Positions 11,438-53,371 of a stretch of 55,644 nucleotides of DNA are shown piece by piece. The notes below the pieces were generated by a model that was given only the letters and a program-made list of their open reading frames with translations, was not told the origin of the DNA and made no database searches. A program made the translations under genes and the position numbers. This stretch comes from a virus (lineage: Duplodnaviria; Heunggongvirae; Uroviricota; Caudoviricetes), in IMG/VR virus record IMGVR_UViG_2537561830_000005; one strand, given 5' to 3'. The stretch's first letter is position 1. Every line of letters starts with the position of its first letter.

Positions 11438-11860
11438 GTGGCAAAAGTTTTTACACAAGAAGAGCGGGAAAAAATTAAAGGGCAGGTTCTTGAACTCGTA
11501 CGCCAGAGTGGGCGCGAGACGTTACGACAACTGGAAGCTAAAACTGGGGCAACAAGATATCTGATGAGCGTTCTGGCCAGAGAGCTGGTTGCCAGTGGCG
11601 ATGTATACAATTCTGGCTACGGGTTATTCCCGTCTGAACAGGCTCGTAAAGACTGGCAAAATGCCCGCAAAAAATTATCGAGGGCAAAGCTGAAGAAACC
11701 GGTTGTGGTTGATCCGGACCTTATCTGGTCATTACCTGACGGAGAAATACGTCGCTACGACAGTCGCCTAAACATAATCTGTCGCGAGTGCCGGAAGAGC
11801 GAAGTTATGCAGCGCATATTGTCGTTTTATCAGGGGGATGTTCGGTATTTATTGAAGTGA
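11438..11860 (+). CDS. hypothetical 140-aa protein in the position of the DnaC-like ydaV
   Basis: GTG start with a CAGGAGGG RBS 3 nt upstream; no recognisable Walker motifs. Confidence 0.6.
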   Translation: MAKVFTQEEREKIKGQVLELVRQSGRETLRQLEAKTGATRYLMSVLARELVASGDVYNSGYGLFPSEQARKDWQNARKKLSRAKLKKPVVVDPDLIWSLPDGEIRRYDSRLNIICRECRKSEVMQRILSFYQGDVRYLLK

Positions 11861-11928
11861 CGAGATTAAAGTGCATTAGTTCAGATGCAAATTGACATTT
11901 TGTGGCACAGGGTAGAGCTAGCGTGGTT

Positions 11929-11952
11929 GTCCGCTTTGTGCCAAGAGCAGAC
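11929..11952. repeat. 24-bp imperfect palindrome GTCCGCTTTGTGCCAAGAGCAGAC (copy 1)
   Basis: Near-identical to the copy at 15602-15625. Confidence 0.4.
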
Positions 11953-12194
11953 GCTGGTAATTCGTGCCTAATATACTTCACTTAACTTATATCCCAGCTT
12001 TGATACAGATCATACAAATTAAATGCCCCAGTAATTGGCAGGCTGAGTAACTTAAAACTCCTTAGAATATAGGATGATTTGTATCGGCACTCATTCCACC
12101 ATGCATTCCGATTAACCCCGCATAGCCAGTTGAACTTTGCTACTCTGTGAGAGGTAGTACCTTCTATCCAGTGCGGATTTAATTAATGGAATAA

Positions 12195-14198
12195 ATGATT
12201 ATGAGTGAAAATGATACAACCCCAAAGAAGTCTACAAGCCAGATTAACAAAGCGGTATTCTTTACATCTGCTTTGCTAATTTTCCTTCTTGTCGCCTTTG
12301 CCGCCGTATTCCCGGATGTCGCCGACAAAAATTTTAAACTACTTCAGCAACAAATCTTCACGAATGCCAGCTGGTTCTACATACTTGCTGTGGCCCTGAT
12401 TTTACTGAGCGTCACGTTCCTTGGACTCTCACGTTACGGTGATATAAAGCTGGGCCCAGACCATGCGCAGCCTGATTTCAGCTACCACTCCTGGTTCGCG
12501 ATGCTTTTTTCGGCAGGGATGGGGATCGGCCTGATGTTCTTTGGCGTTGCCGAACCTGTGATGCATTATCTTTCGCCACCTGTCGGCACTCCAGAGACCG
12601 TTGCGGCAGCGAAGGAAGCCATGCGCCTGACGTTCTTCCACTGGGGTCTGCACGCATGGGCAATTTATGCCATCGTGGCGCTGATTCTGGCCTTTTTCAG
12701 TTACCGTCACGGTCTGCCTTTAACGCTGCGTTCTGCGCTCTATCCCATTATCGGCGATCGCATTTACGGGCCTATAGGCCACGCGGTTGATATCTTCGCC
12801 GTGATAGGCACTGTCTTTGGCGTTGCAACATCGCTGGGTTACGGTGTATTGCAGGTGAATGCCGGTTTGAACCATCTTTTCGGCGTGCCCATCAATGAAA
12901 CGGTACAGGTCATTTTGATCGTGGTCATCACGGGGTTAGCGACGATTTCGGTGGTGTCCGGCCTGGACAAGGGAATACGCATCCTGTCTGAGCTTAATCT
13001 GGGCCTGGCGGTGTTGCTCCTGGCGCTGGTCTTGTGCCTGGGTCCCACTGTGCTTCTGCTGAAGTCATTTGTGGAAAATACGGGTGGTTATCTGTCGGAA
13101 CTGGTGAGTAAAACGTTCAACCTTTACGCGTATGAACCCAAGTCGAGCAACTGGCTGGGGGGCTGGACATTATTATACTGGGGATGGTGGCTTTCATGGT
13201 CGCCGTTTGTAGGTATGTTCATTGCACGCGTTTCCCGCGGCAGGACAATTCGTGAGTTCGTGACTGGCGTGTTGTTTGTTCCCGCCGGCTTTACGCTCAT
13301 GTGGATGACGGTGTTTGGAAACAGCGCCATCTATCTCATCATGAACCAGGGCGCCACTGACCTCGCCAATACCGTTCAGCAGGATGTTGCGCTTGCCCTG
13401 TTTAATTTCCTGGAGCATTTCCCGTTCTCTTCCGTGCTGTCATTCATTGCAATGGCGATGGTCATCGTCTTCTTTGTAACGTCTGCTGATTCGGGGGCAA
13501 TGGTTGTGGATACTCTGGCATCAGGTGGGGTGGCAAACACGCCCGTCTGGCAGCGAATTTTCTGGGCATCGCTCATGGGCGTTGTTGCTATTGCCCTGCT
13601 GATCGCAGGGGGGCTGAGTGCGTTGCAAACCGTAACGATAGCGAGTGCATTGCCCTTCTCAGTTATCTTATTAATATCCATATACGGACTGTTAAAAGCC
13701 CTGCGTCGGGATTTGACCAAGCGTGAAAGCCTTAGCATGGCGACTATTGCTCCTACGGCTGCACGTAACCCAATTCCCTGGCAGAGAAGGTTACGCAATA
13801 TCGCGTATTTGCCGAAGCGCTCTCTTGTGAAACGTTTTATGGACGACATTATCCAACCCGCCATGACGCTGGTTCAGGAGGAACTTAACAAGCAGGGAAC
13901 GATAAGCCACATCAGTGACGCCGCCGAGGATCGTATTCGCCTTGAAGTCGATTTGGGCAACGAGCTGAATTATATATATGAAGTGAGGCTTCGCGGGTAT
14001 AACTCACCGACCTTCGCGCTCGCTGCGCTGGATAATGATGAGCAGCAGAGTGAACAACATCGATATTATCGCGCTGAAGTCTATCTCAAAGAGGGCGGCC
14101 AAAATTATGATGTAATGGGCTGGAATCAGGAACAGCTGATTAATGACATACTGGACCAGTACGAAAAACACCTGCACTTCCTGCATCTGGTTCGTTAA
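12195..14198 (+). CDS. BCCT-family transporter, BetT-like with long C-terminal domain
   Basis: 667-aa ORF with the BCCT tryptophan-rich signature (WTLLYWGWWLSWSPFVG) and strong resemblance to E. coli BetT. Confidence 0.9.
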   Translation: MIMSENDTTPKKSTSQINKAVFFTSALLIFLLVAFAAVFPDVADKNFKLLQQQIFTNASWFYILAVALILLSVTFLGLSRYGDIKLGPDHAQPDFSYHSWFAMLFSAGMGIGLMFFGVAEPVMHYLSPPVGTPETVAAAKEAMRLTFFHWGLHAWAIYAIVALILAFFSYRHGLPLTLRSALYPIIGDRIYGPIGHAVDIFAVIGTVFGVATSLGYGVLQVNAGLNHLFGVPINETVQVILIVVITGLATISVVSGLDKGIRILSELNLGLAVLLLALVLCLGPTVLLLKSFVENTGGYLSELVSKTFNLYAYEPKSSNWLGGWTLLYWGWWLSWSPFVGMFIARVSRGRTIREFVTGVLFVPAGFTLMWMTVFGNSAIYLIMNQGATDLANTVQQDVALALFNFLEHFPFSSVLSFIAMAMVIVFFVTSADSGAMVVDTLASGGVANTPVWQRIFWASLMGVVAIALLIAGGLSALQTVTIASALPFSVILLISIYGLLKALRRDLTKRESLSMATIAPTAARNPIPWQRRLRNIAYLPKRSLVKRFMDDIIQPAMTLVQEELNKQGTISHISDAAEDRIRLEVDLGNELNYIYEVRLRGYNSPTFALAALDNDEQQSEQHRYYRAEVYLKEGGQNYDVMGWNQEQLINDILDQYEKHLHFLHLVR

Positions 14199-14206
14199 CA
14201 GCAACA

Positions 14207-14233
14207 TGCCGCCACAGAGGCGGCATTTATTTA
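14207..14233 (+). terminator. rho-independent terminator after the BCCT gene
   Basis: Hairpin TGCCGCC-ACAGA-GGCGGCA followed by a T-rich run. Confidence 0.55.
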
Positions 14234-14246
14234 TCCCGGCTGCAAT

Positions 14247-15539
14247 ATGAGGGAATGCAGAATGATTTCACGCTGGAAATGGATGCTGAAGCAGACATTT
14301 AAAAAACTATGGTTCAGGGCAACGTTATTCGCAATTGTCGCAATAATAACGGCCCTTTTATCAATTCTTTTTAAATCAATGATACCTGAGTCGGTTTCCG
14401 TGAAGGTTGGTGCGGAAGCAGTCGATAACATTCTGAACATACTGGCATCGAGTATGCTGGCAGTGACCACATTTTCGCTGAGCATCATGGTCACAGCCTA
14501 CGGTTCAGCCACTACTAATGTGACTCCCAGAGCTACTCGTTTAGTTGTTGAAGACGTCACCACACAAAATGTACTGGCCACCTTCATCGGTTCTTTTCTC
14601 TTCAGTCTGGTAGGGATTATTGCCCTCAATATGGGAGCTTATGGAGAAAGGGGGAGAGTCATTTTATTCATTGTAACACTGGTTGTCATTGCCTTAATCC
14701 TCATCACATTGCTTCGCTGGATACAGCATTTGACCTCTCTGGGGAGGGTTGGTGAGACAACGGCAAAAGTAGAACAGGCGGCCATCGAAACATTTATTGC
14801 GAGAGCAAGAAATCCCTGTCTCGGCGGATATCCATGGCTTGAGAACAATGAACAGCCGAAAGGAACGGTTGCAGTTTATCCGAAAAAGATTGGCTATATT
14901 GAATATGTTGATATGGTGAAACTCAGCAAGCTGCTGACCAATGATCCCCGTCATGTATACCTCGTGGCGCAGCCGGGCAGTTTCATACATCCGTCCACGC
15001 CAGTTTTGTACCTGAGTCAGGGCCAGGAGTCATCAATCAGCACCGATTTACTTGAGACGATTATTGTCTCGGATGTACGTTCATTTGCTCAGGACCCCCG
15101 ATTTTGTCTTAGCGTCATGGCCGAAATAGCCTGCCGAGCCCTTTCCCCCGCAGTGAACGATCCTGGAACCGCCATTGATGTCATTGGCAGAGGTGTACGT
15201 ATACTTTCCGCTTACGCGCAGAATAAATCTGATGAAATAGAAGTGAAATATCCTTCTGTACATGTTGCACCACTTCAGAATAACGATCTACTTGAAGACT
15301 TTTTCTCACCTGTTGCGCGCGATGGTGCCAGTATGAGGGAAATTCAGATAAGGGTACTTAAAGGACTGTCGATGCTGAGTAAGGGTTGGCCTGGAATTTT
15401 TGCTGAAGCCGCACAAACCCTAGCATTTGAAACATTAGAGCATGCTACTCGTGCTGACCATATAGATTCTGACAGATATCTAATAAAATCAATTTATTAT
15501 AATTTATTTAGTGGCGAAGATTCTAATAAAAAACCATAG
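14247..15539 (+). CDS. membrane protein with N-terminal TM helices and C-terminal soluble domain (possibly DUF2254)
   Basis: 430-aa ORF; hydrophobic segments in the first ~160 aa; alternative ATG at 14262; family name is tentative. Confidence 0.7.
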   Translation: MRECRMISRWKWMLKQTFKKLWFRATLFAIVAIITALLSILFKSMIPESVSVKVGAEAVDNILNILASSMLAVTTFSLSIMVTAYGSATTNVTPRATRLVVEDVTTQNVLATFIGSFLFSLVGIIALNMGAYGERGRVILFIVTLVVIALILITLLRWIQHLTSLGRVGETTAKVEQAAIETFIARARNPCLGGYPWLENNEQPKGTVAVYPKKIGYIEYVDMVKLSKLLTNDPRHVYLVAQPGSFIHPSTPVLYLSQGQESSISTDLLETIIVSDVRSFAQDPRFCLSVMAEIACRALSPAVNDPGTAIDVIGRGVRILSAYAQNKSDEIEVKYPSVHVAPLQNNDLLEDFFSPVARDGASMREIQIRVLKGLSMLSKGWPGIFAEAAQTLAFETLEHATRADHIDSDRYLIKSIYYNLFSGEDSNKKP

Positions 15540-15601
15540 TTGCGGAGCAAGCGATACGGTTGTTGGCAAGTCAAGGGCAAAGCATTCGCGTGAGAGTGGG
15601 C

Positions 15602-15625
15602 GTCTGCTTTGTGCCAGAAGCGGAC
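15602..15625. repeat. 24-bp imperfect palindrome GTCTGCTTTGTGCCAGAAGCGGAC (copy 2)
   Basis: Lies between the convergent ends of the membrane-protein and LysR genes; a looser hairpin GTCCGCT-N10-AGCGGAC sits at 18668-18691. Confidence 0.4.
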
Positions 15626-15669
15626 ATACGTAACTTATGATACGCATCGCCAATCATCCGTTTCAAACA

Positions 15670-16551
15670 TCAACGCGGAAACGTTTTAAGAATGTAATCC
15701 CGAACATAGGCGGTTCGGCTGTTATTAGCCGTCCTTTTGTTCCAGACCAGATAAAGATGATTAGTCGGAGCGAGGTCTGCAGGTGTCACTGAAATCAGGC
15801 GACCACTTTTCAGGTCATTGTCACAGTGATAATCCGGCAGCACTGTCCACCCGTGGCCGTCACAGACCAAGTCGCGGATAATACGTAAATCCGGAATGGT
15901 GAATGTAGCCTGCATCTCAGGGGCTCTCTGAAACATGGAGGCCCAGAGCGCTCTAATCAGTGGCAACTCTTCGTCATAAGCAATCAGCGGTAATGAGGCA
16001 AGCGTTTCAGCACCAGGTTCTGATCCGATGATCTCTGACATGGCGGGAGCATGAACAAGGAGCATGCGTTCAGTCAGTAGATGTGCATAGCCGTACAGAC
16101 GGTCATCAGGCATAGATGCGGTAACAGCGAGATCGGCGCTCCCGTCATGCAAAAGGGAATAAATACGTTGCTTATTGCCGGTATGAAAGCGTAGGCGATA
16201 CCCCTCCTTCATTAGTGGAGCCATTACTGTCCCAAGCCGGGAATGAATAAAATCTGGCGGTCCTGCCAGATTAATTGTTCCCCCACGTACAGAGCCTGAC
16301 CGGAAAGAGGACAGCTTTTCTTCCAGACCATCAATGAAGGGTGAAACTGAGCGGGCAAGCTCATCCGCAGCTTCGGTTGCCGTCACGCCTCTGGCCTGCC
16401 TGATAAACAGACGCTTACCAACCAGAGTCTCAAGAGACTGGATATGCTGTGACGCCGCGGGCTGAGTGATGCCCAGTAGTTCTGCCGCCTTTGAAAAGGA
16501 GCCAGAGCGATAGGCCTCAAGAAACGTTCGCAGATGGCTCAGATGGCTCAT
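15670..16551 (-). CDS. LysR-family transcriptional regulator
   Basis: 293-aa ORF with an N-terminal HTH (FSKAAELLGITQPAASQHIQSLE); its ATG overlaps the upstream gene's stop (ATGA). Confidence 0.9.
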   Translation of the reverse strand: MSHLSHLRTFLEAYRSGSFSKAAELLGITQPAASQHIQSLETLVGKRLFIRQARGVTATEAADELARSVSPFIDGLEEKLSSFRSGSVRGGTINLAGPPDFIHSRLGTVMAPLMKEGYRLRFHTGNKQRIYSLLHDGSADLAVTASMPDDRLYGYAHLLTERMLLVHAPAMSEIIGSEPGAETLASLPLIAYDEELPLIRALWASMFQRAPEMQATFTIPDLRIIRDLVCDGHGWTVLPDYHCDNDLKSGRLISVTPADLAPTNHLYLVWNKRTANNSRTAYVRDYILKTFPR

Positions 16552-17240
16552 AGTGAAGCGCCTCGCTGATGAAGTTTATCGTTACAGGGAGCCTCATGCA
16601 GAGCAAGGGCCAGTTCACTCACGTAATCATCCCGTATTCCCAACGCACCCAGAGTGGCCTGCAGTTTCCATACATAATCTGCATTCGTGCCAATGTCTCC
16701 ACGGGCAGATGCGATGCTCAACGCTACGGTCGCTGTAAGATTGTCCTGTTCATAATGCGGATGCAGTCTGTCTGATACGAAAGCCAGCGCCTGAATTTCC
16801 TTACCGTTTCCTAGCGAAACGTCTGCCCAGACCGGACGGTAAAGACCGGTTATCATCTCGCGCGTCCAGACAATTTCCAGCTCATTAATAAGAGTCGATT
16901 CCGGCAGTCTGAACGCAATACCTTCGGTAATTCCACCTTCGTCGAGCGATAACATCCTGCCGGGGACATCAGGAGTCGCTCGTCCGGATATCAAACGAAT
17001 GCAGAAACTGCGCTGCCATCCTTTCAGACGGGCCCGTTGCATTTCTTCAATCGCCAGCACGGGATTCCACATCAATGACCCGTAGGCAAATATCCAGACA
17101 GGAGCACCCGTCGGGCGCTCCTCCAGAGTAGAGTTCATTGATGCGCGTATTTTTTCAGCGTCCCAGAGCATATTCGCCGGGAGCAGCGCTTCATGCACCC
17201 TGACAAATGTGCCATTAAGCATATTTTCACGGGTAAGCAT
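16548..17240 (-). CDS. ChaC-like gamma-glutamylcyclotransferase
   Basis: 230-aa ORF with the YGSLMWNP motif and overall resemblance to E. coli ChaC. Confidence 0.8.
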   Translation of the reverse strand: MLTRENMLNGTFVRVHEALLPANMLWDAEKIRASMNSTLEERPTGAPVWIFAYGSLMWNPVLAIEEMQRARLKGWQRSFCIRLISGRATPDVPGRMLSLDEGGITEGIAFRLPESTLINELEIVWTREMITGLYRPVWADVSLGNGKEIQALAFVSDRLHPHYEQDNLTATVALSIASARGDIGTNADYVWKLQATLGALGIRDDYVSELALALHEAPCNDKLHQRGASL

Positions 17241-17251
17241 ATAACCTCCCT

Positions 17252-18451
17252 TTACTGGCCTACGATTTTAACCTGTTGAAATTTACGACTGTGGCTGCGA
17301 CGGATTTGTGCAAGCAGCAACAGCAGGCCGAGCAGAGAAACAATCGCACCGCTGATACCGGTATACACGATACCGGCGTGGCTTATAGTAATGCTGCCCA
17401 GTACTGATCCCAGCGCTATACCTGAGTTGAAGCCCGCAATATTCAGGCCGGCAGCAACACCATGCGCATGAGGAGCATGTTGCTCAGCGACACCAATCAG
17501 ACGGGCCTGCAGTGCCGGCACTGCGGCAAATGTCACCATACCCAGTAGCGCAACCAGAATGCCCATGCTCACCGGTGAGGATGACAGCAGCCACATACCA
17601 AGCACGACAACAACAATGCCGCTAATGATGAGTATATTGGCACGATTAACCCCCATGCTGTCGGTAAGTTTCCCACCAAGAATATTACCTACCGCAGCTG
17701 TAATACCGTAAACCAGCATAAACAGACTCACCGTTGCTCCGGTAACCCCTGTCACCTGCGTCAGAATAGGTGCGATAAAGGTGTAATCCGTAAACGAGCC
17801 TGCATACGCCAGCACCGTAACCAGCGCGCCGGCCAGCAACTTACGGTTAAACAGCATGCCGATATTCTGCATTGCTGAGTCACTATGTTCACCGGGCACG
17901 CTGCGTACGGGATCTTTCATACCGAACAACAGTCCAAGGAATCCGAACGCGCCAAAAGCGGCAATAGCGCCGAGAACTGGACGCCATGAGACCACCCCCC
18001 CCAACCATGTACTCAGCGGTACGCCGATTGCCATCGCCAGAGTAAAGCCACCAAATACCACAGCCACCGCTCTGCCTGCTTTACCCGGTCCAGCAAGACG
18101 AGCTGCGGTACTGGATGCCGCAGCCAGAAACAGGCCGTGTCCCAGACCAGCAATGAACCGCGCTAACAGGAGCTGAGGTAATGTGGCTGCAAACGCGGCC
18201 GCCAGACTACCGGCAGTAAACACAACGGCAGTTGTAAGCATTACATTTTTCCGGCTCCAGCTTGCTGTCAGCGCAGACAGTACGGGTGCCGCGAACGTTG
18301 CCCCCAGTGCATAGGTTGTAACCGCTGCCCCGGTCTGCTCCACACCCACACACAACCCCTGAGCCATAACGTCTGTCAGCCCAATGGGGACAAATTCCGC
18401 GAGTCCGAGCGCAAAGGCACTGATAGTAAACACATAAATAACAAATGGCAT
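17252..18451 (-). CDS. MFS transporter, YdhP/AraJ-like
   Basis: 399-aa ORF with ~12 predicted TM segments; first gene of the MFS / ChaC-like / LysR operon. Confidence 0.9.
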   Translation of the reverse strand: MPFVIYVFTISAFALGLAEFVPIGLTDVMAQGLCVGVEQTGAAVTTYALGATFAAPVLSALTASWSRKNVMLTTAVVFTAGSLAAAFAATLPQLLLARFIAGLGHGLFLAAASSTAARLAGPGKAGRAVAVVFGGFTLAMAIGVPLSTWLGGVVSWRPVLGAIAAFGAFGFLGLLFGMKDPVRSVPGEHSDSAMQNIGMLFNRKLLAGALVTVLAYAGSFTDYTFIAPILTQVTGVTGATVSLFMLVYGITAAVGNILGGKLTDSMGVNRANILIISGIVVVVLGMWLLSSSPVSMGILVALLGMVTFAAVPALQARLIGVAEQHAPHAHGVAAGLNIAGFNSGIALGSVLGSITISHAGIVYTGISGAIVSLLGLLLLLAQIRRSHSRKFQQVKIVGQ

Positions 18452-18870
18452 GACTGGCTCCTGATTTAAGTAAGGAGTGCAGTCTGATTTAGAAAAACAG
18501 ATAAATAAAATAATGTAAACTTCAGGCGGGATAAAATTATTTATATCTAAGGCAAAGATTCAATATTCCCACAGCACACAGAAGTTTTCTGTCTTCAGGG
18601 AGAGGAGCTTCGAAAGTTCAGACGAAAAATTCCTGCGGCCCCTTTAAGAGTCAGTTGGCCGGGTTTGGTCCGCTCCTCGCTCAAAGCGGACTAGAAGGTT
18701 AGCTTGCGTCGGACTTGGCGTATTTAAAGAAGTGCTGGTGGTGACTGGTTGTTGTGTTCCATTTCTACAGAACAAAATCACAGAAACTATACCCAATAGT
18801 TATATTGAATCAATGATGAGACAGCCTCATATTTATCAGAACTGGTGTACGTCCAATACAGGAGGTTGTC

Positions 18871-18960
18871 GTGCTGGTTCTCAAATGTGCGCTAGCTATT
18901 GCGGCTGTAATGGCAATTTATTGTCTTGCTGTTGTTCTTATGGAGCGGCTTTCTGATTGA
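18871..18960 (+). CDS. candidate 29-aa hydrophobic small protein
   Basis: AGGAGG at 18860-18865, GTG at 18871; translation MLVLKCALAIAAVMAIYCLAVVLMERLSD; overlaps the Cys/Gly-rich track ORF 18732..18956 in another frame. Confidence 0.25.
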   Translation: MLVLKCALAIAAVMAIYCLAVVLMERLSD

Positions 18961-19174
18961 TTACATACTGGCTAGAAAAAAGGTGTTACCTTGGTTTATC
19001 TTTGTCCGGCAAGGTGCGCTCATTAATCTTAAGTAAATTTATTGCTCAAGTATTCAGATTACTTCTTATGGTTGAAGTCTCCTGTCAATGTAGAACCAAT
19101 ATATTTACAAAAATGAGACCCGTCGGGGATAGCCCTGCCGGGTCTGACTGTTAAAGCATTTTTAATATGATCAT

Positions 19175-19513
19175 CTATTTTTTGGTGCTATAGACTTTTT
19201 CGCCCGAGAAGTCTGGAGCGACCCAAAAGTTAATATTAAACTGAGCATCATCGCTTAGTTCAACACGGTGCCAGTATTGTGGTGGGCTTGTTGCAAAAGC
19301 GCCAGCATTAATGACTACTTTTATCTCCGGTTCAGTAGCATTCTCATCAGTAAAACCATAATATGTTACAGTGCCTTCCATTACGCACAACTGCCCAAAA
19401 ACACCTGCTGCTGTATTATGATGTGTTAATAACGCTGAAGGTACGTTCTCTTTTGTGAAGAACGGAGTTGAGCGTTTGATTACCCAATCTTTAGGAATTC
19501 TCTTGTGTGTCAT
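19175..19513 (-). CDS. YeaR-like DUF1971 protein
   Basis: Product MTHKRIPKDWVIKRSTPFF...; conserved pattern shared with E. coli YeaR (RSTPF..., FNI.F.VAP); GAGGTGG RBS. Confidence 0.8.
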   Translation of the reverse strand: MTHKRIPKDWVIKRSTPFFTKENVPSALLTHHNTAAGVFGQLCVMEGTVTYYGFTDENATEPEIKVVINAGAFATSPPQYWHRVELSDDAQFNINFWVAPDFSGEKVYSTKK

Positions 19514-20326
19514 AACCACCTCATCAAAAACATGCATTATAAATGCGTGTTTTTGATGGTTATGTCAAGCTGTTATGAAACACATAATTGATATGTTGAT
19601 TAGAGGAGAAGATATAATAAATATGGTTGTTTTTCGTATAACTATTTGTTTTACTTTTAGTTTATGCATTCTGTGTGTTAGGAATAAGTTATTAAAGTTT
19701 AATCAAAAAATCTCGATGTAGTCCACATAGATTATTGTTACTGAACCTTATTGTGTGTATTAGTTGTGTTCTGAAATTTCAGCTTAATTATTTATGATGT
19801 ATTTTTTAACGATAAATATTTTCCCAGGATACCTTTACTGTGTATATAAATAAATTATATACACATAAATAATGTAAAGGCGTCCTTTTAGATATATCTT
19901 ATCAAATGTTAATGACTTGAGTGGGAAATATGATTCCAGCAACTTATCATGTGGCTACTTTATAAAAATAATGCCCATATAAAACAACAAGCGAAAAGGA
20001 TTACGGATAAAAAAGGAGCGAGATGTGCGAACTTGTTATTTTCCATGTTTAACCACCTTAAATAATTGATGATGACGGGATGATTGCATCTGTAATGCTT
20101 TTATTGAAATGTTATGATAAAAAAGAACTTTTGCATAACATTAAAATGTAATTTATCTAATCGTTTTTAATAATAAATGTCGTATTTCTATCCTTGTACC
20201 AGCTATTTGATATGTAGTGTTTGTTCATGCTATGTGGGGCTTTACACCATAGCCAGTTTATTTATACTTTATTCGTCAGCCTGAACAACTGGCATCTGCT
20301 GCGCTGCGCCATCGAGAGATTGAGAA

Positions 20327-20926
20327 ATGGCGCATATACAACTGGTCAAACAAACTTCTTCTGGTTTACTTCTCCCGGCGACGCCGGAGAGTTGCGATTT
20401 TCTGCATCAAATCAAAATAGGTGAGTGGATACACGCAGACTTTAAGCGTGTGCGTAACTACGCATTCCACAAGCGTTTTTTCAAACTCCTGCAACTGGGA
20501 TTCGATTACTGGACTCCGGTCGGTGGGGCGATCACGCCTCGCGAACGAGAACTGCTGTCTGGTTTCGTTGATTACCTGTGCGAATCAGTTGGTCGGGAAC
20601 ACACGCCAGCCCTGAGTGATGCCGCAGAGCAATACCTTAACACCGTTGCGACTCGTAGAACCCGGGATACGGCGTTGCTAAAGTCGTTTGAGGCTTTCCG
20701 CGAGTGGGTAACCATTCAGGCCGGATTTTACACCGAGCATATTTATCCGGACGGTAGCCGTGGGCGTCGGGCAAAATCCATCGCTTTTGCGAATATGGAC
20801 GAAGTCGAGTTTCAGCAGGTTTATAAATCTGTACTGAATGTGCTGTGGAACTGGATTCTGTTTCGTAAATTCTCCTCTCAGGAGGAAGTTGAAAATGTGG
20901 CCGCACAACTACTGGAGTTTGCGTAA
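20327..20926 (+). CDS. phage nin-region protein, possibly DUF1367 family
   Basis: 199-aa ORF; stop overlaps the next ATG (TAATG); family assignment from recall, not verified. Confidence 0.6.
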   Translation: MAHIQLVKQTSSGLLLPATPESCDFLHQIKIGEWIHADFKRVRNYAFHKRFFKLLQLGFDYWTPVGGAITPRERELLSGFVDYLCESVGREHTPALSDAAEQYLNTVATRRTRDTALLKSFEAFREWVTIQAGFYTEHIYPDGSRGRRAKSIAFANMDEVEFQQVYKSVLNVLWNWILFRKFSSQEEVENVAAQLLEFA

Positions 20927-21216
20927 TGGTGAATTTACGTAAAGCGGCTAAAGGCCAGATGTGCCAGATCAGAATCCCTGGCTACTGCAATCACAATCCC
21001 GAAACCTCTGTGCTGGCGCATTACAGGCTGGCGGGGACGTGCGGAACAGCGACAAAACCACACGATATGCAGGCGGCGATAGCCTGTAGCTCATGCCACG
21101 ATCTAATCGACGGGCGGGTAAAAACCAGCGATTACACCAAAGAAGAATTGCGCCTGATGCATGCTGAAGGGGTTTTTCGCACACAAGAAATCTGGAGAAA
21201 GAAAGGTCATTTATGA
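20926..21216 (+). CDS. YbcO-like putative nuclease (DUF1364)
   Basis: 96-aa ORF with CQIRIPGYCN and CSSCHD motifs, resembling DLP12 YbcO. Confidence 0.7.
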   Translation: MVNLRKAAKGQMCQIRIPGYCNHNPETSVLAHYRLAGTCGTATKPHDMQAAIACSSCHDLIDGRVKTSDYTKEELRLMHAEGVFRTQEIWRKKGHL

Positions 21217-21755
21217 TTTACCCAACGAATACAGGAAAAAGCGGAGAACACCTTCGCCTCACCACGCTGGAAAGTGTCTGGATTCAGGGAAAACTACGTA
21301 TGTGGGGGCGCTGGTCGTATATTGGCGGTGGCAGGTCAGGGAATATGTTCAATCAGTTGTTGGCATCCAAAAAACTGACGAAAACAGCCATTAATGAAGC
21401 CCTGCGTAGAATGAAAAAAGCGGGAATAGAGAAAGCTGAGCTGGAAGCGTTTTTGCGAGAGATGATCAACGGCAAGCAAAAGAGCTGGCTGGCGCATTGT
21501 ACTGATGCAGAGGCGTTATGTATTGATCGAGTCATAAGTGAGGTGCTGGCAGAGCATCCAGGATTGATTTGCATTCTCCGGCAACGCTATGAAGGGCGGG
21601 GGATGACTAAGCGCAAAATGGCTGAATTGCTAAATGATGGACACCCAGAGTGGTGTTTTAGCACATGCGAAAAACGGATTGCTAATTGGTTAGCTGTTGC
21701 TGAGTATGCCCTATATATTCCCATGCGTGAATCATTTGCTGAGAAAATGGCTTGA
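21213..21755 (+). CDS. putative late-gene antiterminator (Q-like)
   Basis: 180-aa ORF after the nin-like genes and before terminators and the lysis cassette; assignment by position and weak recall. Confidence 0.5.
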   Translation: MIYPTNTGKSGEHLRLTTLESVWIQGKLRMWGRWSYIGGGRSGNMFNQLLASKKLTKTAINEALRRMKKAGIEKAELEAFLREMINGKQKSWLAHCTDAEALCIDRVISEVLAEHPGLICILRQRYEGRGMTKRKMAELLNDGHPEWCFSTCEKRIANWLAVAEYALYIPMRESFAEKMA

Positions 21756-22798: not shown

Positions 22799-23227
22799 AT
22801 GGGTTTTCGTAGCGCATCAATTCTTACGTTGATTATTAGTGGGATTATTATCGGGTGCACTGATGCTGTATCGACAAATTATCATGACCGTACATCATAT
22901 TACTCCGATAAAGCAATAGAGACACAGTATGTGAGTTCATCTGAACGTACTTCTGATGTTAGTGAGGATATCCGTCTGTATGCCCATCAAATCAAGAGCG
23001 CCATCGAAAAACAGTTCGGGGATGCGAGTAAGTATTCAGGAAAAGAGTGTACACTGAGAATGCATATGGCCCCGAATGGCCTTCTACTGGAGGTTAAAAG
23101 AGAAAGTGGAGACCTCGATTTATGTCGTGAAGCGATGAATGCGATAAAGAATGCTGATATACCTGCCCCCCCTTCGCCGGAAGTATATAAAGTATTTCAA
23201 AATGGGGTGCTGGATTTTAAACCCTGA
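22799..23227 (+). CDS. phage lipoprotein, paralog 1
   Basis: Signal peptide with lipobox IIGC; C-terminal domain shared with paralog 2; GAGGAAAA RBS. Confidence 0.7.
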   Translation: MGFRSASILTLIISGIIIGCTDAVSTNYHDRTSYYSDKAIETQYVSSSERTSDVSEDIRLYAHQIKSAIEKQFGDASKYSGKECTLRMHMAPNGLLLEVKRESGDLDLCREAMNAIKNADIPAPPSPEVYKVFQNGVLDFKP

Positions 23228-23377
23228 TATTTATTGTTTTGTAATAAACGGTTTCGGCTTAGGTTTGTTCTGACACAGCTACGGCACTGAGCTAAATTTA
23301 GCGGATAGTCAGCTCTGAGCCAGTGGCGGACGTAACAACTACTATTGCTGAGATTTTAATGGATTGAGGAGCAAGAA

Positions 23378-23773
23378 GTGGGATTAAAGAAAATCGTTAT
23401 GTTGACTTTTTGGGTCGGTTTTGTTGCGGGATGCACACCTTTACACCCTTCAGATTGCCACAAAACTACTGCTACAGGTAGTTGCAGTTCAGGACGCTGG
23501 GATGATCAGGATGAATGGGGGGCGCAAGCGCGGGGAATCAGAGCTGCAATTAATGCCAAACTTGATGAGCCGCATAACTGGAAAGGGAAAAAATGCAGGT
23601 TGCATATGGAATTCTCTCAGGATGGCACGGCGTTAAAAATATCTACCAGTAACGGTGATAAAGCCTATTGCGAAGCGATAAAGTCCGCAGCTCATAAAGC
23701 CAAATTTCCGGCCTTCAACAATCCGGAAGTCTACAGAGATTTTCAGAAATCTGGCTTTGACATGCGAGGTTAG
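23378..23773 (+). CDS. phage lipoprotein, paralog 2
   Basis: GTG start with GAGGAG RBS; lipobox VAGC; C-terminal domain homologous to paralog 1. Confidence 0.7.
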   Translation: MGLKKIVMLTFWVGFVAGCTPLHPSDCHKTTATGSCSSGRWDDQDEWGAQARGIRAAINAKLDEPHNWKGKKCRLHMEFSQDGTALKISTSNGDKAYCEAIKSAAHKAKFPAFNNPEVYRDFQKSGFDMRG

Positions 23774-25198: not shown

Positions 25199-25335
25199 AA
25201 TCTTAACTACAATATGATTCATTTTGATGATTGTTTCATAAGAAACAGTGAAGTAAGATCTAAGAGGAGTTAAATTTTATACAGTATAATCATAATATTG
25301 CAGCAAGGTGGTTATAATTGAAAGAATATTTAGAT

Positions 25336-26793
25336 ATGAATACATCTCATGTAAGAGTTGTTACTCATATGTGTGGGTTCCTGGTTTGGCTCTATAGTCT
25401 TTCAATGTTGCCACCAATGGTTGTAGCATTGTTTTATAAAGAAAAAAGCCTGTTCGTTTTCTTTATAACTTTCGTTATATTTTTTTGCATTGGTGGCGGA
25501 GCGTGGTATACAACTAAGAAATCTGGCATTCAATTACGTACCCGTGATGGGTTTATTATAATTGTAATGTTTTGGATTTTGTTTTCTGTTATTAGTGCAT
25601 TCCCTTTATGGATTGACTCAGAACTTAATTTAACGTTCATTGATGCTCTGTTTGAAGGGGTTTCTGGAATAACAACAACAGGAGCAACTGTAATTGATGA
25701 TGTTAGTTCATTACCTCGGGCATATTTGTACTATCGGTCACAGTTAAATTTTATAGGTGGTTTAGGAGTTATTGTTCTGGCGGTTGCTGTATTGCCATTA
25801 TTGGGTATTGGTGGTGCAAAGCTTTATCAGTCAGAAATGCCGGGGCCATTTAAGGATGACAAACTCACTCCCCGCCTGGCCGATACGTCACGGACACTGT
25901 GGATAACTTATTCTTTATTAGGTATTGCTTGTATTGTCTGTTATAGACTTGCAGGAATGCCTTTGTTTGATGCTATTTGTCACGGGATTTCCACAGTTTC
26001 GCTTGGTGGTTTCTCAACTCATAGCGAGAGTATCGGATATTTTAATAACTATTTGGTTGAGCTGGTGGCTGGTTCTTTTTCCCTGCTATCGGCTTTCAAC
26101 TTCACTCTTTGGTATATTGTTATTAGCAGGAAAACGATAAAACCTTTAATCAGAGATATTGAACTTCGTTTCTTTCTGTTAATAGCCTTAGGGGTGATCA
26201 TTGTTACCTCTTTCCAGGTCTGGCATATAGGTATGTATGACTTGCATGGAAGTTTTATTCATTCGTTTTTTCTTGCCAGCTCCATGCTCACTGATAATGG
26301 TTTAGCTACGCAGGATTATGCAAGTTGGCCCACGCACACGATAGTGTTTTTGCTGTTGTCAAGTTTCTTTGGGGGATGTATAGGTTCAACTTGTGGTGGA
26401 ATTAAGTCACTTCGATTTCTTATACTTTTCAAACAAAGCAAACACGAGATAAATCAGCTTTCTCATCCCAGAGCGTTGTTGAGTGTAAATGTAGGAGGGA
26501 AGATAGTTACAGATCGTGTAATGAGGTCTGTATGGAGTTTCTTTTTTCTTTATACTCTCTTCACGGTGTTTTTTATACTGGTGTTAAATGGTATGGGATA
26601 TGATTTTCTTACATCATTTGCAACAGTGGCTGCATGTATTAATAATATGGGATTAGGTTTTGGGGCTACTGCATCGTCATTCGGAGTGCTTAATGACATT
26701 GCAAAATGTTTAATGTGCATAGCTATGATTCTTGGTCGCCTTGAAATTTATCCTGTTATTATATTGTTTTCAGGTTTTTTTTGGCGCTCCTAA
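25336..26793 (+). CDS. trkG: Trk-system potassium uptake protein TrkG
   Basis: Product MNTSHVRVVTHMCGFLVWLYS... recalled as K-12 TrkG (a Rac gene); AT-rich coding sequence. Confidence 0.9.
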   Translation: MNTSHVRVVTHMCGFLVWLYSLSMLPPMVVALFYKEKSLFVFFITFVIFFCIGGGAWYTTKKSGIQLRTRDGFIIIVMFWILFSVISAFPLWIDSELNLTFIDALFEGVSGITTTGATVIDDVSSLPRAYLYYRSQLNFIGGLGVIVLAVAVLPLLGIGGAKLYQSEMPGPFKDDKLTPRLADTSRTLWITYSLLGIACIVCYRLAGMPLFDAICHGISTVSLGGFSTHSESIGYFNNYLVELVAGSFSLLSAFNFTLWYIVISRKTIKPLIRDIELRFFLLIALGVIIVTSFQVWHIGMYDLHGSFIHSFFLASSMLTDNGLATQDYASWPTHTIVFLLLSSFFGGCIGSTCGGIKSLRFLILFKQSKHEINQLSHPRALLSVNVGGKIVTDRVMRSVWSFFFLYTLFTVFFILVLNGMGYDFLTSFATVAACINNMGLGFGATASSFGVLNDIAKCLMCIAMILGRLEIYPVIILFSGFFWRS

Positions 26794-49425: not shown

Positions 49426-51597
49426 ATGGCAGTACGGATTTCAGGTGTACTGAAAGATGGCGCAGGTAAGCCGATACAAAACTGCACCATTCAGCTAAAG
49501 GCCAGGCGCAACAGCACCACGGTGGTGGTGAACACAGTGGCCTCAGAAAACCCGGATGAAGCCGGGCGTTACACAATGGACGTCGAGTATGGTCAGTACA
49601 GCGTCAGTCTGTTGGTGGAGGGATTCCCGCCGTCACACGCCGGGATTATCACCGTATATGAGGACTCAAAGCCGGGCACACTGAATGATTTCCTCGGTGC
49701 AATGACGGAGGATGATGTCCGGCCAGAGGCACTGCGCCGTTTTGAACTGATGGTGGAAGAGGTGGCGCGTAACGCGTCCGCAGTGGCACAGAACACGGCA
49801 GCCGCGAAGAAGTCAGCCGGCGATGCCGGCACATCTGCCCGTGAGGCGGCAACCCATGCGACTGATGCTGCAGGCTCAGCACGCGCAGCCAGCACGTCAG
49901 CCGGACAGGCCGCTTCGTCGGCTCAGTCAGCGTCTTCCAGCGCAGGAACGGCATCAGCAAAGGCCACTGAAGCATCAAAAAGTGCTGCCGCTGCAGAGTC
50001 CTCAAAAAGCGCGGCGGCCACCAGTGCCGCTGCGGCAAAAACGTCAGAAACGAATGCGGCAGCGTCACAACAATCAGCAGCCACTTCAGCATCCACCGCG
50101 ACCACGAAAGCGTCAGAAGCTGCCACCTCAGCCCGGGATGCGGCGGCCTCAAAAGAGGCAGCGAAATCATCAGAAACGAACGCATCATCAAGCGCCAGTA
50201 GTGCCGCTTCCTCGGCAACGGCGGCAGGCAATTCCGCGAAGGCGGCAAAGACGTCTGAGACAAACGCCAGGTCTTCTGAAACGGCAGCGGGACAGAGTGC
50301 CTCAGCTGCGGCAGGCTCAAAAACAGCGGCTGCGTCGTCTGCCAGTGCCGCGTCAACAAGTGCCGGGCAGGCCTCAGCCAGTGCCACCGCCGCCGGAAAA
50401 TCGGCAGAAAGCGCCGCATCGTCTGCTTCAACAGCCACAACGAAGGCTGGCGAAGCCACTGAACAGGCCAGCGCAGCAGCAAGGTCTGCTTCCGCAGCGA
50501 AGACATCCGAGACGAACGCGAAAGCGTCGGAAACCAGCGCAGAATCCTCAAAAACGGCTGCCGCATCGTCCGCCAGTTCGGCGGCGTCATCGGCATCATC
50601 GGCGTCTGCTTCAAAAGATGAGGCGACCAGACAAGCGTCCGCAGCGAAGGGCAGCGCCACGACGGCATCCACGAAGGCGACAGAGGCAGCTGGCAGTGCG
50701 ACGGCGGCAGCACAGAGCAAAAGTACGGCGGAATCCGCGGCAACGCGCGCCGAGACAGCGGCAAAACGGGCAGAGGATATTGCATCCGCCGTGGCGCTTG
50801 AGGATGCGAGCACGACGAAAAAGGGGATAGTACAGCTCAGCAGTGCGACCAATAGCACTTCCGAGTCACTGGCGGCAACGCCAAAAGCCGTTAAGGCCGC
50901 GTATGACCTGGCTAACGGGAAATACACCGCACAGGATGCAACGACAGCACAGAAAGGGATAATCCAGCTAAGCAGCGCGACCAACAGCACGTCTGAAACG
51001 CTGGCGGCAACGCCAAAGGCAGTAAAATCAGCCTATGACAATGCAGAGAAACGTCTGCAGAAAGACCAGAACGGCGCTGATATACCCGATAAGGGACGCT
51101 TCCTGAACAACATTAACGCGGTCAGTAAAACAGACTTTGCTGATAAGCGTGGTATGCGTTATGTGCGGGTTAACGCTCCTGCAGGTGCAACATCTGGAAA
51201 ATATTACCCTGTTGTTGTTATGCGTTCTGCTGGCTCAGTAAGCGAACTGGCATCAAGGGTCATTATCACCACGGCAACGCGAACCGCAGGCGATCCGATG
51301 AATAACTGCGAGTTTAACGGATTTGTTATGCCTGGTGGCTGGACTGACAGGGGGCGTTATGCTTATGGAATGTTCTGGCAATATCAAAACAATGAACGAG
51401 CCATCCACTCAATAATGATGAGTAATAAGGGCGATGATTTGCGCTCTGTGTTCTATGTTGATGGCGCTGCTTTCCTGGCGTTTATCGAAGATGGCCTGTC
51501 AATATCCGCACCTGGTGCTGATCTCGTTGTTAATGATACGACCTATAAGTTTGGGGCAACAAATCCAGCGACTGAATGTATCGCGGCGGACATTTGA
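49426..51597 (+). CDS. stfR: side tail fibre protein Stf, copy 1 (723-aa reading frame)
   Basis: N-terminus MAVRISGVLKDGAGKPIQNCTIQLKA..., long Ala/Ser-rich repeats, then a globular C-terminal part. Confidence 0.75.
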   Translation: MAVRISGVLKDGAGKPIQNCTIQLKARRNSTTVVVNTVASENPDEAGRYTMDVEYGQYSVSLLVEGFPPSHAGIITVYEDSKPGTLNDFLGAMTEDDVRPEALRRFELMVEEVARNASAVAQNTAAAKKSAGDAGTSAREAATHATDAAGSARAASTSAGQAASSAQSASSSAGTASAKATEASKSAAAAESSKSAAATSAAAAKTSETNAAASQQSAATSASTATTKASEAATSARDAAASKEAAKSSETNASSSASSAASSATAAGNSAKAAKTSETNARSSETAAGQSASAAAGSKTAAASSASAASTSAGQASASATAAGKSAESAASSASTATTKAGEATEQASAAARSASAAKTSETNAKASETSAESSKTAAASSASSAASSASSASASKDEATRQASAAKGSATTASTKATEAAGSATAAAQSKSTAESAATRAETAAKRAEDIASAVALEDASTTKKGIVQLSSATNSTSESLAATPKAVKAAYDLANGKYTAQDATTAQKGIIQLSSATNSTSETLAATPKAVKSAYDNAEKRLQKDQNGADIPDKGRFLNNINAVSKTDFADKRGMRYVRVNAPAGATSGKYYPVVVMRSAGSVSELASRVIITTATRTAGDPMNNCEFNGFVMPGGWTDRGRYAYGMFWQYQNNERAIHSIMMSNKGDDLRSVFYVDGAAFLAFIEDGLSISAPGADLVVNDTTYKFGATNPATECIAADI

Positions 51598-52480
51598 TAA
51601 GAGTGGGCGGGTTTTTATGAGTCTCATTCGTTAATCGTTAACGATAACTTGTCGTGCAAACTTTTTGCCACAGACGAAATTGTAGCGCGTGGTGGTAATC
51701 AGATTCGAATGATAGGTGGGGAGTATGGGGCATTATGGCGTAATGATGGCGCTAAAACTTACCTGCTGCTTACCAATCAAGGTGATGTTTATGGTGGATG
51801 GAATACATTAAGACCGTTTGCTATTGATAACGCAACCGGCGAACTGGTTATTGGAACCAAGCTGTCTGCAAGTCTGAACGGTAACGCATTGACAGCAACA
51901 AAGCTGCAAACGCCAAGACGGTTTCTGGGTTGAGTTTGATGGTTCAAAGATATTAACCGCATGCTGCGCCAGAACAACGGATACATATGCCGATGCGGAG
52001 GAAGTTGATGATGAAGGCGCATTACAGAAATGGTGGTCTGTTCTACCGTTCTTCAAGAGACGGTTATGGTTTTGAGGAAGACTGGGCAGAAGTTTATACC
52101 TCGAAAAATCTTCCACCAGAAAGCTACCCAGTCGGCGCACCATATGCCCTGATGCAGGGGCAGACGACAAATCTGCTTACCCGAAACTTGCAGCCGCTTA
52201 TCCGTCAGGCGTGATCCCTGATATGCGTGGCTGGACGATTAAGGGCAAGCCCGCCAGTGGTCGTGCCGTATTGTCTCAGGAACAGGACGGCATTAAATCG
52301 CACACCCACAGCGCCAGCGTATCCAGTACGGATTTGGGTACGAAAACCACATCATCGTTTGATTACGGCACTAAATCCACGAATAACACTGGTGCGCATA
52401 CTCATAGTTTAAGTGGCAGCACGAATGCAGCTGGTAATCACAGCCATAGAGATGGCCGTCGATTTAACCCCAGTGTTTAA
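51598..52480 (+). pseudogene. tail-fibre C-terminal remnants in shifted frames
   Basis: Track ORFs 51649..51933, 51987..52214 and 52211..52480 sit in three frames and carry fibre-like segments (YALMQGQT..., [35 protein letters not shown]...). Confidence 0.5.
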
Positions 52481-52503
52481 AGATATAATCATAGCCATCA
52501 CTG

Positions 52504-52641
52504 TGGCACAGCAGGAGTGGCAGGGGAAGCGTCACTCTGGAGTTTAAGATTTTCCAGAATGGCAATCAGGGGGCAGGCAATATCACCGACTGTACGGTGA
52601 TTGCGACCAAAAAAGCCGCTTCCGGCATCAGTATTCGTTGA
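52504..52641 (+). other. fragment of an alternative J C-terminal cassette (copy a)
   Basis: Encodes ...GRGSVTLEFKIFQNGNQGAGNITDCTVIATKKAASGISIR-stop, homologous to but distinct from the J end ...[14 protein letters not shown]...[10 protein letters not shown]. Confidence 0.5.
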
Positions 52642-52711
52642 AATATTTATAACCCCAATAAAGGGCGTCAGGAATGACGCCTTTTTTATTGCAGAAAAGC
52701 GAGAGGTAATT

Positions 52712-53305
52712 ATGCGTAAAGTTTGTGCAGCAATTTTGTCCGCAGCCATTTGTCTGGCCGTATCCGGTGCGCCTGCATGGGCGTCTGAACATCAGTCCAC
52801 GCTGAGCGCGGGGTATCTTCATGCCTCGACGAACGTCCCCGGCAGCGATGATCTGAACGGGATTAACGTGAAATACCGTTATGAGTTTACGGACACACTG
52901 GGGCTGGTGACGTCATTCAGCTATGCAGGAGACAAGAATCGCCAGCTGACCCGTTACAGCCGCTGGCATGAAGATTCCGCTCGTAACCGCTGGTTCAGCG
53001 TAATGGCGGGGCCGTCTGTGCGCGTGAATGAATGGTTCAGCGCGTATGCGATGGCGGGTGTAGCTTACAGCCGTGTGTCGACTTTCTCCGGGGATTATCT
53101 TCGCGTAACTGACAACAAGGGGAAAAAGCACGATGTGCTGACCGGAAGTGATGACGGTCGCCACAGCAACACGTCTCTGGCGTGGGGGGCTGGCGTGCAG
53201 TTTAACCCGACCGAATCCGTGGCCATTGATATTGCTTATGAAGGCTCCGGCAGTGGTGACTGGCGCACTGACGGTTTCATCGTGGGTGTCGGTTATAAAT
53301 TCTGA
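52712..53305 (+). CDS. Lom-like outer membrane protein, copy 2
   Basis: 197 aa from ATG 52712; differs from copy 1 by a 2-codon deletion and a few substitutions. Confidence 0.85.
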   Translation: MRKVCAAILSAAICLAVSGAPAWASEHQSTLSAGYLHASTNVPGSDDLNGINVKYRYEFTDTLGLVTSFSYAGDKNRQLTRYSRWHEDSARNRWFSVMAGPSVRVNEWFSAYAMAGVAYSRVSTFSGDYLRVTDNKGKKHDVLTGSDDGRHSNTSLAWGAGVQFNPTESVAIDIAYEGSGSGDWRTDGFIVGVGYKF

Positions 53306-53371
53306 TTAGCCAGGTAACACAGTGTTATGACAGCCCGCCGGTTCAGGCGGGCTTTTTTTGTGGGGTTGAAT

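Follow-up and report, generated by a model that had tools for sequence, protein, structure and literature searches.

Non-phage genes carried by phages are already known from prophage morons, among them trkG in the Rac prophage, and from the hotspots of P2 and P4 phages. We analyzed 55,644 nt of Caudoviricetes DNA (IMG/VR record IMGVR_UViG_2537561830_000005; this whole stretch is called the window), in which six non-phage genes lie inside a Rac-type lambdoid prophage of Escherichia coli. We have high confidence that this cargo is carried in cassettes bounded by copies of a 24-bp site. The cargo block by itself is an ordinary, though clean, set of prophage accessory genes, and it is the boundary sites that matter most. 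Like morons of the Hendrix type (trkG, and fun(Z), tin and old in P2), the six genes are non-phage genes that lie between phage modules and are absent from relatives. By definition, however, a moron is a single unit that has its own promoter and terminator, and morons have no common boundary sequence, while here there is a 24-bp site for each unit and the units form arrays.

The P2/P4 defense hotspots, whose cargo is largely anti-phage, include the P2 gpG-gpFI hotspot (Rousset et al. 2022; PMC9122126). This hotspot is one of the contexts in which we found the 24-bp site, and the site additionally links P2-like hotspots to lambdoid prophages and chromosomal islands. The text of the hotspot paper speaks neither of recombination sites nor of palindromes, hairpins or inverted repeats. 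Full-text literature searches, which included sequence strings, returned no description of the motif; the older P2 literature was beyond their coverage. Anti-phage hotspots are well documented in both P2-like and lambdoid prophages, and no explanation for the clean swapping of cassettes between unrelated phages was found in the literature examined. The newness of the boundary observation in P2-like phages is uncertain, since the title of a 2004 paper by Nilsson and colleagues is said to hint at site-specific recombination at P2 variable regions. As far as checked, the link to lambdoid prophages and islands, the two-center architecture, the exchange point within the site, and a mini-recombinase with its own half-site appear to be new.

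Integrons have several features in common with the system described here: a primary site next to the gene for a tyrosine recombinase, cassette arrays whose units hold one to three genes, cassettes that are promoter-less or self-expressed, and the sharing of cassettes between replicons. By functional analogy, an integron-like array, consisting of a recombinase, an adjacent primary site and arrays of related sites, was found. The system differs from integrons in its recombinase of about 200 aa, its 24-bp palindromes of a double-stranded type, its two site types per cassette, and the presence of both cassette orientations. The sites follow GTCYGCT-NN-hexamer-NN-AGCRGAC and not the attC layout (R''/L''...L'/R' with GTTRRRY cores). 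The candidate enzyme, which belongs to a family that we call int202, is not an IntI-type integrase, as it scored 54.5 bits against the XerA/integron-integrase model with a cut-off of 220, and no int gene of this kind is present in the window.

In Acinetobacter, pdif modules have XerC/XerD sites around resistance modules. Like the cassettes described here, they are discrete modules with short sites of alternating orientation and a 6-bp center, and they move between replicons. In the present case, however, the site has no sequence relationship to dif-type XerC/D sites, with symmetric arms and differing centers, and the candidate enzyme is neither XerC nor XerD. Modules of the XerCD/dif type, with a 28-bp site made of XerC and XerD arms, were rejected by inspection, since the site does not look like the dif consensus. 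REP/REPIN repeats with their RAYT enzymes also have palindromic intergenic repeats, inverted doublets, and an enzyme gene between two repeats. Membership in this group was rejected because the candidate enzyme here matches PF00589 and is not of the HUH/Y1 type, and the arms do not covary as those of a selected hairpin would. The sopE cassette, known from P2-like and lambdoid Salmonella phages (Mirold et al. 2001), was considered as another member of the system. It does not have the same boundary site, as SopEPhi (AY319521) is without such a site around sopE.

The cargo and its boundary sites

A 9-kb stretch with the block was 100% identical in E. coli genomes GPEC617 and NCTC11129. The gene order in both is ttcA-intR-xisR-recT-recE-kilR-sieB-repressor-ydaT-rep-DUF977 to the left of the block and DUF1367-Q-TolA-like-lysis-trkG-terminase-head-tail-stf-tfaR-pinR-ynaM-uspF to its right, and this element is a Rac prophage of full length that occupies the same site as Rac in K-12. 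At least 80% of the block was covered in 296 of 5,426 complete E. coli genomes (about 5%), and the phage flanks were included in 282 of these carriers. Sub-parts of the block were also found in an insertion sequence (IS)-rich chromosomal island and on a plasmid. In the phage collection, no isolated phage with the cargo was found, and only the H1 region (see below) was matched, by mEp460_ev081, Tritos, Evi and 204576.

A preliminary description, made from the sequence alone, had placed six non-phage genes between the replication and late-regulation modules and had read them as prophage cargo. All six are present as placed in the open reading frame (ORF) list and the Pfam scan. The cargo reading also held, as both flanks belong to one Rac element with a single integrase, the block is rare in E. 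coli, and the same phage flanks recur in nearly all carriers. The GC content of the block, for which a comparison with the flanks had been suggested, is E. coli-like at 0.46-0.53, and the spacer on the right (Table 1) is AT-rich as described. Other parts of the description had to be revised. The block does not stand in place of ydaV-ydaW of K-12 Rac, because the K-12 replication module (ydaU/V/W) is non-homologous. YdaW, which was considered as the counterpart of the DUF977 protein, has no similarity to it and was rejected. A ydaW-rzpR fusion in K-12 Rac deletes everything as far as the lysis genes, hence the whole cargo region, and no copies of the 24-bp site were found there. Other close relatives carry other cassettes at the same position. 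The limits of the block are not the ORF-poor spacers but three copies of the 24-bp site (H1, H2 and H3 in Table 1). Finally, the block is not a single module, as it consists of two site-bounded cassettes and an independent DUF1971 moron that lies outside of them.

The site can be written as GTCYGCT-NN-(GTGCCA or GAGCGA)-NN-AGCRGAC, with 7-bp inverted arms, a 6-bp center, and two variable bases between the center and each arm. When the window was searched with the pattern GTCYGC-N12-GCRGAC, four matches were found, compared to 0.3-0.4 expected by chance. Breakpoints of homology were determined by megablast against E. coli genomes and lie at 11952, about 15621 and 18668; all three fall on copies of the site. 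The H1 and H2 regions form a 33-nt direct repeat with 79% identity, and the H1 and H3 regions form a 37-nt inverted repeat around the cargo with 76% identity. At H1, loci with the DUF977 backbone keep the same outer arm and hexamer, and loci with the BCCT cassette keep the same inner arm.

Cassette 1, with the BCCT and DUF2254 genes, is atypical in having two direct GTGCCA sites around it. Ten sampled loci carry it as a unit, with five different right-hand neighbors in otherwise identical contexts. In the Rac prophage of strain PEC1009, the BCCT and DUF2254 genes are followed by two other single-gene units that replace LysR-ChaC-MFS, and there is a site at every joint. Cassette 2, with the LysR, ChaC and MFS genes, is always to the right of cassette 1 in E. 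coli. The position of the DUF1971 gene is a second variable position, at which related prophages carry DUF1971 or hokD.

The copy of cassette 1 in the chromosomal island (94% identity) lies beside acuR, lpxM and virK and adjoins an IS3-family element, and the plasmid copy (89% identity) lies beside the sil operon. A decayed site is present exactly at the end of homology in the island copy, and the plasmid copy has a more degenerate remnant. A scan of both copies for further sites gave just one decayed site, in the island. These remnants at the homology ends suggest that the island and plasmid BCCT-DUF2254 copies, which are found in roughly 2,000 complete E. coli genomes, once had a cassette context in common with the phage copy.

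Sites in other phages, islands and bacteria

An exact-pattern scan of viral contigs found at least 120 contigs with the site. Across the sampled contigs, the sites are always intergenic, and there are two classes of central hexamer, GTGCCA and GAGCGA, whose left and right roles are fixed. The 108 inter-site intervals represent 70 distinct cassette types, 52 of which have a GTGCCA site on the left and an inverted GAGCGA (TCGCTC) site on the right. Tandem arrays are present, with adjacent cassettes joined as site-18 nt-site. The sites follow DUF977 in lambdoid prophages at 38 sampled loci, with hokD on the right, and are found at the Z/fun hotspot between gpG and gpFI of P2-like phages at 17 sampled loci. 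Further sites adjoin umuDC-like genes, follow J-like tail genes, or lie in genomic islands. Identical cassettes occur in lambdoid and P2-like backbones: a 984-bp cassette was found in both a lambdoid and a P2-like phage, and a 1,582-bp cassette was found in a P2-like phage and also behind BCCT and DUF2254 in a lambdoid array.

Phage P2 itself (AF063097) carries variable cargo between gpG and gpFI. To the left of fun(Z) is the site GTCCACTCT.GTGCCA.AAAGCGGAC at 15335-15358, and to the right is a decayed TCGCTC site at 17432-17455. No site was found around tin or old in P2.

Many of the other cassettes matched defense genes in PADLOC and Pfam, namely PD-T7-1, PD-T7-5, PDC-S06, reverse transcriptases, S_4TM, TIR, SIR2, DarT, AbiG and HEPN. 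Metabolic cassettes were also found, with SDR, adenosine deaminase, LysE, Ham1, GNAT, HAD and glyoxalase genes. Since the other cassettes are mostly defense cassettes and some are plainly metabolic, the transporters in the window belong to the non-defense minority of a hotspot best known for defense genes. The site is a simple tag for cassette boundaries, and hence for new defense or conversion genes in prophages and islands of Enterobacterales.

In a scan of one genome per species, the site was present in many Enterobacterales and, unexpectedly, also in many metagenome-assembled genomes (MAGs) of Xanthobacteraceae and Hyphomicrobiales. In these MAGs, doublets of the form GTGCCA site-21 nt-GGGTCA site separate units of one or two genes, with up to six doublets per 8 kb; dense doublets are seen at loci L249, L205, L159, L250 and L168. 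Homologues of int202 with 52-55% identity are located between sites in the same MAGs.

The exchange point, int202 and alternative explanations

When the same cassette was compared in different backbones, the outer arm and hexamer tracked the backbone, and the inner arm tracked the cassette. There were 536 pairs of sites with the same outer flank and different cassettes. Positions 1-15 were 91-100% identical in these pairs, and identity fell to 41%, 37% and 57% at positions 16, 17 and 21, respectively. Because one part of the site follows the backbone and the other follows the cassette, the exchange appears to happen inside the site, as at the core of a tyrosine recombinase. Inverted arms around a 6-bp center that holds the exchange point are the layout of tyrosine-recombinase cores (Cre/lox, FRT, and dif-type sites). 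Pairing between arm positions 4-21, 8-17 and 9-16 was no more frequent than in shuffled controls, which argues for a double-stranded protein-binding site and not a selected hairpin. A "compensatory" T-A pair between the half-sites of cassette 1 was considered and rejected as too weak, since TA pairs are present in 6 of 102 sites. By analogy with such recombinase cores, two different centers in inverted orientation would allow cassette replacement and prevent excision or inversion.

The candidate enzyme, int202, is a 202-aa protein of the Phage_integrase family (PF00589, 2e-17). In 3 of about 120 sampled viral loci, its gene fills precisely the interval from a TCGCTC site to a GTGCCA site, at the position where other arrays have the 18-nt linker. 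The int202 module was found in 932 of the 5,426 E. coli genomes (17%), and homology stops at the two sites. Nissle 1917 and ATCC 25922 also carry it, in non-phage islands where additional sites are close by. The family has at least 8,000 matches, and sequence identity is 77-95% across Escherichia, Sodalis, Pectobacterium, Proteus, Providencia, Pantoea, Idiomarina, Pseudoalteromonas and Cycloclasticus. The protein stays below the cut-offs of all curated Xer, integron and invertase models in NCBIfam, and no relative in the PDB was found by sequence.

In every close relative of int202 examined, a hairpin comes after the stop codon, and the half-site CAGGGCTGCAACAGCAGCCCT.GTGCCA.NNAGCGGAC comes after the hairpin. 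The hairpin and half-site were seen 3' of the gene in Escherichia, Phytobacter, Proteus, Idiomarina, marine ICE-like islands (ICE, integrative and conjugative element), and Alphaproteobacteria. Enzyme subfamily and site hexamer (GTGCCA, CGGCCA or GGGCCA) covary, as the half-site hexamer is CGGCCA in relatives at 60% identity and GGGCCA in those at 55%. Upstream of the small recombinase gene is a TCGCTC half-site with a special arm (ATAAGGGAC), and the TCGCTC and GTGCCA half-sites around int202 resemble an attI-like pair. We have moderate confidence that int202 is the enzyme acting in site-specific recombination at these sites. The sfx sites of the R64 shufflon, on which the tyrosine recombinase Rci acts, have the 7-bp crossover core GTGCCAA. 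The likeness of GTGCCA(A) to this core may be a coincidence or may reflect distant relatedness.

The cargo consists of accessory genes of a single Rac-type lambdoid prophage, located in a cassette hotspot directly downstream of DUF977. We propose that phages and islands would acquire, lose and exchange cassettes through conservative site-specific recombination, with the crossover in or beside the central hexamer. As the two centers differ, the exchange would be like recombinase-mediated cassette exchange (RMCE). A less certain step is the enzyme, which would be a tyrosine recombinase of the int202 family; recombination in the window would need it in trans, because the window does not encode a protein of this type. 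The cargo genes would be expressed from the lysogen and benefit the host; lysogenic conversion with an osmotic or thiol phenotype, in line with the preliminary description, is conjectural. Taken as a whole, and including the cargo functions predicted from protein families, we judge this explanation to be fairly probable. The shared site with its internal exchange points, together with a mini-recombinase that has a cognate half-site, offers a concrete mechanism for hotspot turnover that can be tested at the bench. A broader proposal is more tentative. A so far uncharacterized, integron-like cassette system of Proteobacteria, with recombinases of about 200 aa that have their own attI-like site, 24-bp sites with two hexamers, and natural RMCE, could shuttle defense and metabolic cassettes between lambdoid and P2-like phages, ICE-like islands and chromosomes, and thereby generate the "defense hotspots" of prophages.

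Several observations weigh against this explanation. The reciprocal set, with the same cassette in different backbones, comprises 14 pairs, and the tracking of the cassette by the inner arm is therefore less well supported. None of the 5,426 E. coli genomes has a precise allele without cassette 1, with the LysR cassette directly after H1, and excision polymorphism of this unit was thus not observed. No recombinase of the int202 family is encoded in the window. Several int202 homologues in ICE-like islands have no full sites within 6 kb and are accompanied by the downstream half-site only. The units between doublets in Alphaproteobacteria are ordinary-looking accessory genes (sulfatase, Na/H exchanger, porin, GGDEF-EAL), and these doublets could be REP-like dispersed repeats instead of cassette arrays. 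A scan for promoter-like sites was uninformative, with 14 found and 13.8 expected from shuffles.

Another possible explanation is that no dedicated recombinase exists, and the sites are short conserved linkers between which cassettes are swapped by homologous recombination (RecA, RecET/Red) in co-resident phages. Rac encodes RecE and RecT, the backbone is highly conserved on either side of the hotspot, and int202 is missing from the window and from most of the sampled site-bearing loci. Crossovers of this kind should scatter over the whole identical stretch and its flanks, but the exchange is confined to the central part of the site, with outer-arm positions 4 and 8 following the backbone and positions 16, 17 and 21 following the cassette. 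Cassettes are also common to lambdoid and P2-like backbones, which share only the site, and the site-18 nt-site joints of tandem arrays are hard to make by homology alone. We therefore consider it unlikely that homologous recombination accounts for the exchange. It is quite improbable that the motif is a structural hairpin that marks the boundaries without causing them, whether as a terminator or insulator or as a REP/REPIN-like element. In favor of this reading are the palindromic sequence with its 6-nt "loop," the exclusively intergenic location of the sites, and the REP-like doublets between ordinary genes in Alphaproteobacteria. However, the arms show no covariation above shuffles, there is no T-run after the site, the hexamer is conserved in sequence as two classes with fixed roles, the half-sites segregate with either backbone or cassette, and the associated enzyme is a PF00589 recombinase and not a RAYT-type HUH transposase. 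The lack of covariation and of an Rfam match also led us to reject a selected RNA or single-stranded DNA hairpin.

Two further alternatives concern the genes themselves. As the hotspot is mostly defense and the other cassettes at the same sites, which the PADLOC scan covered, match the anti-phage families listed above, the cargo could be disguised defense genes. This is highly improbable, since the BCCT protein is a full-length member of the BetT subfamily above the curated cut-off and clearly metabolic cassettes (SDR, LysE, Ham1, GNAT, HAD, glyoxalase) occupy the same hotspot. The block could also be core chromosome between two separate elements, which was named in the preliminary description as the finding that would overturn it. 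We give this practically no credence, and the scenario can be ruled out, because a single complete Rac prophage with one integrase provides both flanks, about 95% of E. coli genomes are without the block, and K-12 has no such genes at the same locus.

Predicted cargo functions and neighboring features

The features of the cargo region and its phage flanks are listed in Table 1.

Table 1. Coordinates of the boundary sites, cassettes, genes and flanking features (window positions, except for the last row)
Feature	Position	Strand	Description
Site H1, left cargo boundary	11929-11952	+	GTCCGCTTT.GTGCCA.AGAGCAGAC; backbone homology with other prophages stops at 11952
Site H2, junction of cassettes 1 and 2	15602-15625	+	GTCTGCTTT.GTGCCA.GAAGCGGAC; homology with island, plasmid and Rac variants stops at 15614-15627
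Site H3, right cargo boundary	18668-18691	-	GTCCGCTCC.TCGCTC.AAAGCGGAC; GAGCGA type, inverted; conserved backbone segment from 18668
Cassette 1	11944-15616	+	BCCT (12201-14198) and DUF2254 (14262-15539); between two direct GTGCCA sites
Cassette 2	15617-18682	-	LysR-ChaC-MFS; ends at inverted GAGCGA site
Fourth site-like copy	23308-23331		GTCAGCTCT.GAGCCA.GTGGCGGAC; hybrid hexamer
DUF977 gene	11438-11860	+	End of phage replication module, left backbone; PF06163 at 2e-28
BCCT transporter	12195/12201-14198	+	665/667 aa; PF02028 at 7e-199, 661.7 bits
DUF2254 membrane protein	14247/14262-15539	+	425/430 aa
LysR regulator	15670-16551	-	Pfam match
ChaC-like gamma-glutamylcyclotransferase	16548-17240	-	Pfam match
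MFS transporter	17252-18451	-	Pfam match
Conserved backbone segment	18692-18975	.	About 300 bp, right of hotspot; unannotated in >2,000 E. coli genomes
DUF1971 (YeaR/TehB-N-like) gene	19175-19513/19537	-	PF09313 at 3e-26
AT-rich non-coding spacer	19540-20326	.	Ahead of DUF1367 gene; GC 0.34 over 19001-20000
DUF1367, DUF1364, DUF1133/Q-like genes	20327-21755	+	Late-regulation module, right backbone; Pfam matches, RefSeq annotation
Small recombinase loci	L009:3770-4477; L130, L131, L179, L253, L257, L258		

The preliminary description of the BCCT protein as BetT-like was borne out. It is full-length and scored 752 bits against the NCBIfam BetT subfamily NF007399 (cut-off 695), and it scored 593.5 bits against the glycine-betaine BCCT equivalog, which is below the cut-off of 650. 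It is 42% identical to K-12 BetT over the full length, including the C-terminal domain (672 aligned positions). From this family placement, the protein is predicted to import choline or betaine-type osmolytes. It may be similar to BetU, an accessory transporter for betaine in uropathogenic E. coli; no source names the protein BetU, and NCBIfam places it in the BetT (choline) subfamily. BetU was reportedly described in 2004 by Ly and colleagues, in a paper, cited in PMC13300293, that is said to have also studied trkG of Rac. Like the protein in the window, BetU is an accessory BCCT of E. coli. The betU gene was reportedly flanked by insertion sequences, which may be compared with the 94% identical island copy beside an IS3-family element.

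The DUF2254 gene accompanies the BCCT gene in all three contexts (island, plasmid, and PEC1009 Rac), and a functional link between them is likely, since the genes travel together. A strong terminator-like hairpin at 14206-14226, with an 8-bp stem followed by TTATTTAT, separates the two genes, which may therefore not be a simple operon. The LysR, ChaC and MFS genes are co-oriented, and the ChaC and LysR genes overlap by 4 bp. The nearest relatives of the ChaC-like protein, from Enterobacter sp., are 89% identical, and those in Paraburkholderia, Pantoea and Pseudomonas have an identity of about 50%. A DHA1-type MFS protein with ChaC and LysR suggests LysR-controlled transport and breakdown of gamma-glutamyl or glutathione compounds, and DUF1971 is predicted to be a small stress-type protein. 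Overall, we have low to moderate confidence in these physiological roles, which were assigned from protein families.

The conserved backbone segment to the right of H3 precedes hokD in Qin-like prophages (contexts L008 and L009), and it has no Rfam or Pfam match. Within it is a Cys-rich 74-aa ORF at 18732-18956, also with no Pfam match. A near-perfect 17-nt inverted repeat, CATCAAAAACATGCATT / AATGCGTGTTTTTGATG, spans the start codon region of the DUF1971 gene at 19522-19558 and may be an operator. The AT-rich spacer has no ORF of at least 60 aa in the ORF list except for 20221-20424. At the other end of the cargo, the gene to the left of DUF977 encodes a 358-aa protein that is called a "phage replisome organizer" in some RefSeq records.

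The fourth copy of the site, located in the stretch from Q to the lysis genes, lies between two tandem genes for TolA C-terminal domains (22799-23227 and 23378-23773) and may mark a second cassette position. The trkG gene (25318-26793), which encodes a TrkH-family K+ transporter (PF02386), lies between the lysis genes and ynaK, as in K-12 Rac, and is a second transporter cargo gene of the same prophage.

The window starts inside intR (1-683 and 2015-2567), which is split by a 1,331-bp IS3-family element at 684-2014. This element looks like IS2; its ORFs (HTH_Tnp_1 and rve) encode 136 aa and 301 aa, and the target duplication is 5 bp long. Because intR is interrupted, this copy of the prophage is probably immobile and unable to excise, and its cargo would thereby be fixed in the chromosome. 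At the right end of the window (50001-55644), lom and side-tail-fiber segments are duplicated, and two stretches match one part of the tail-fiber region of GPEC617.

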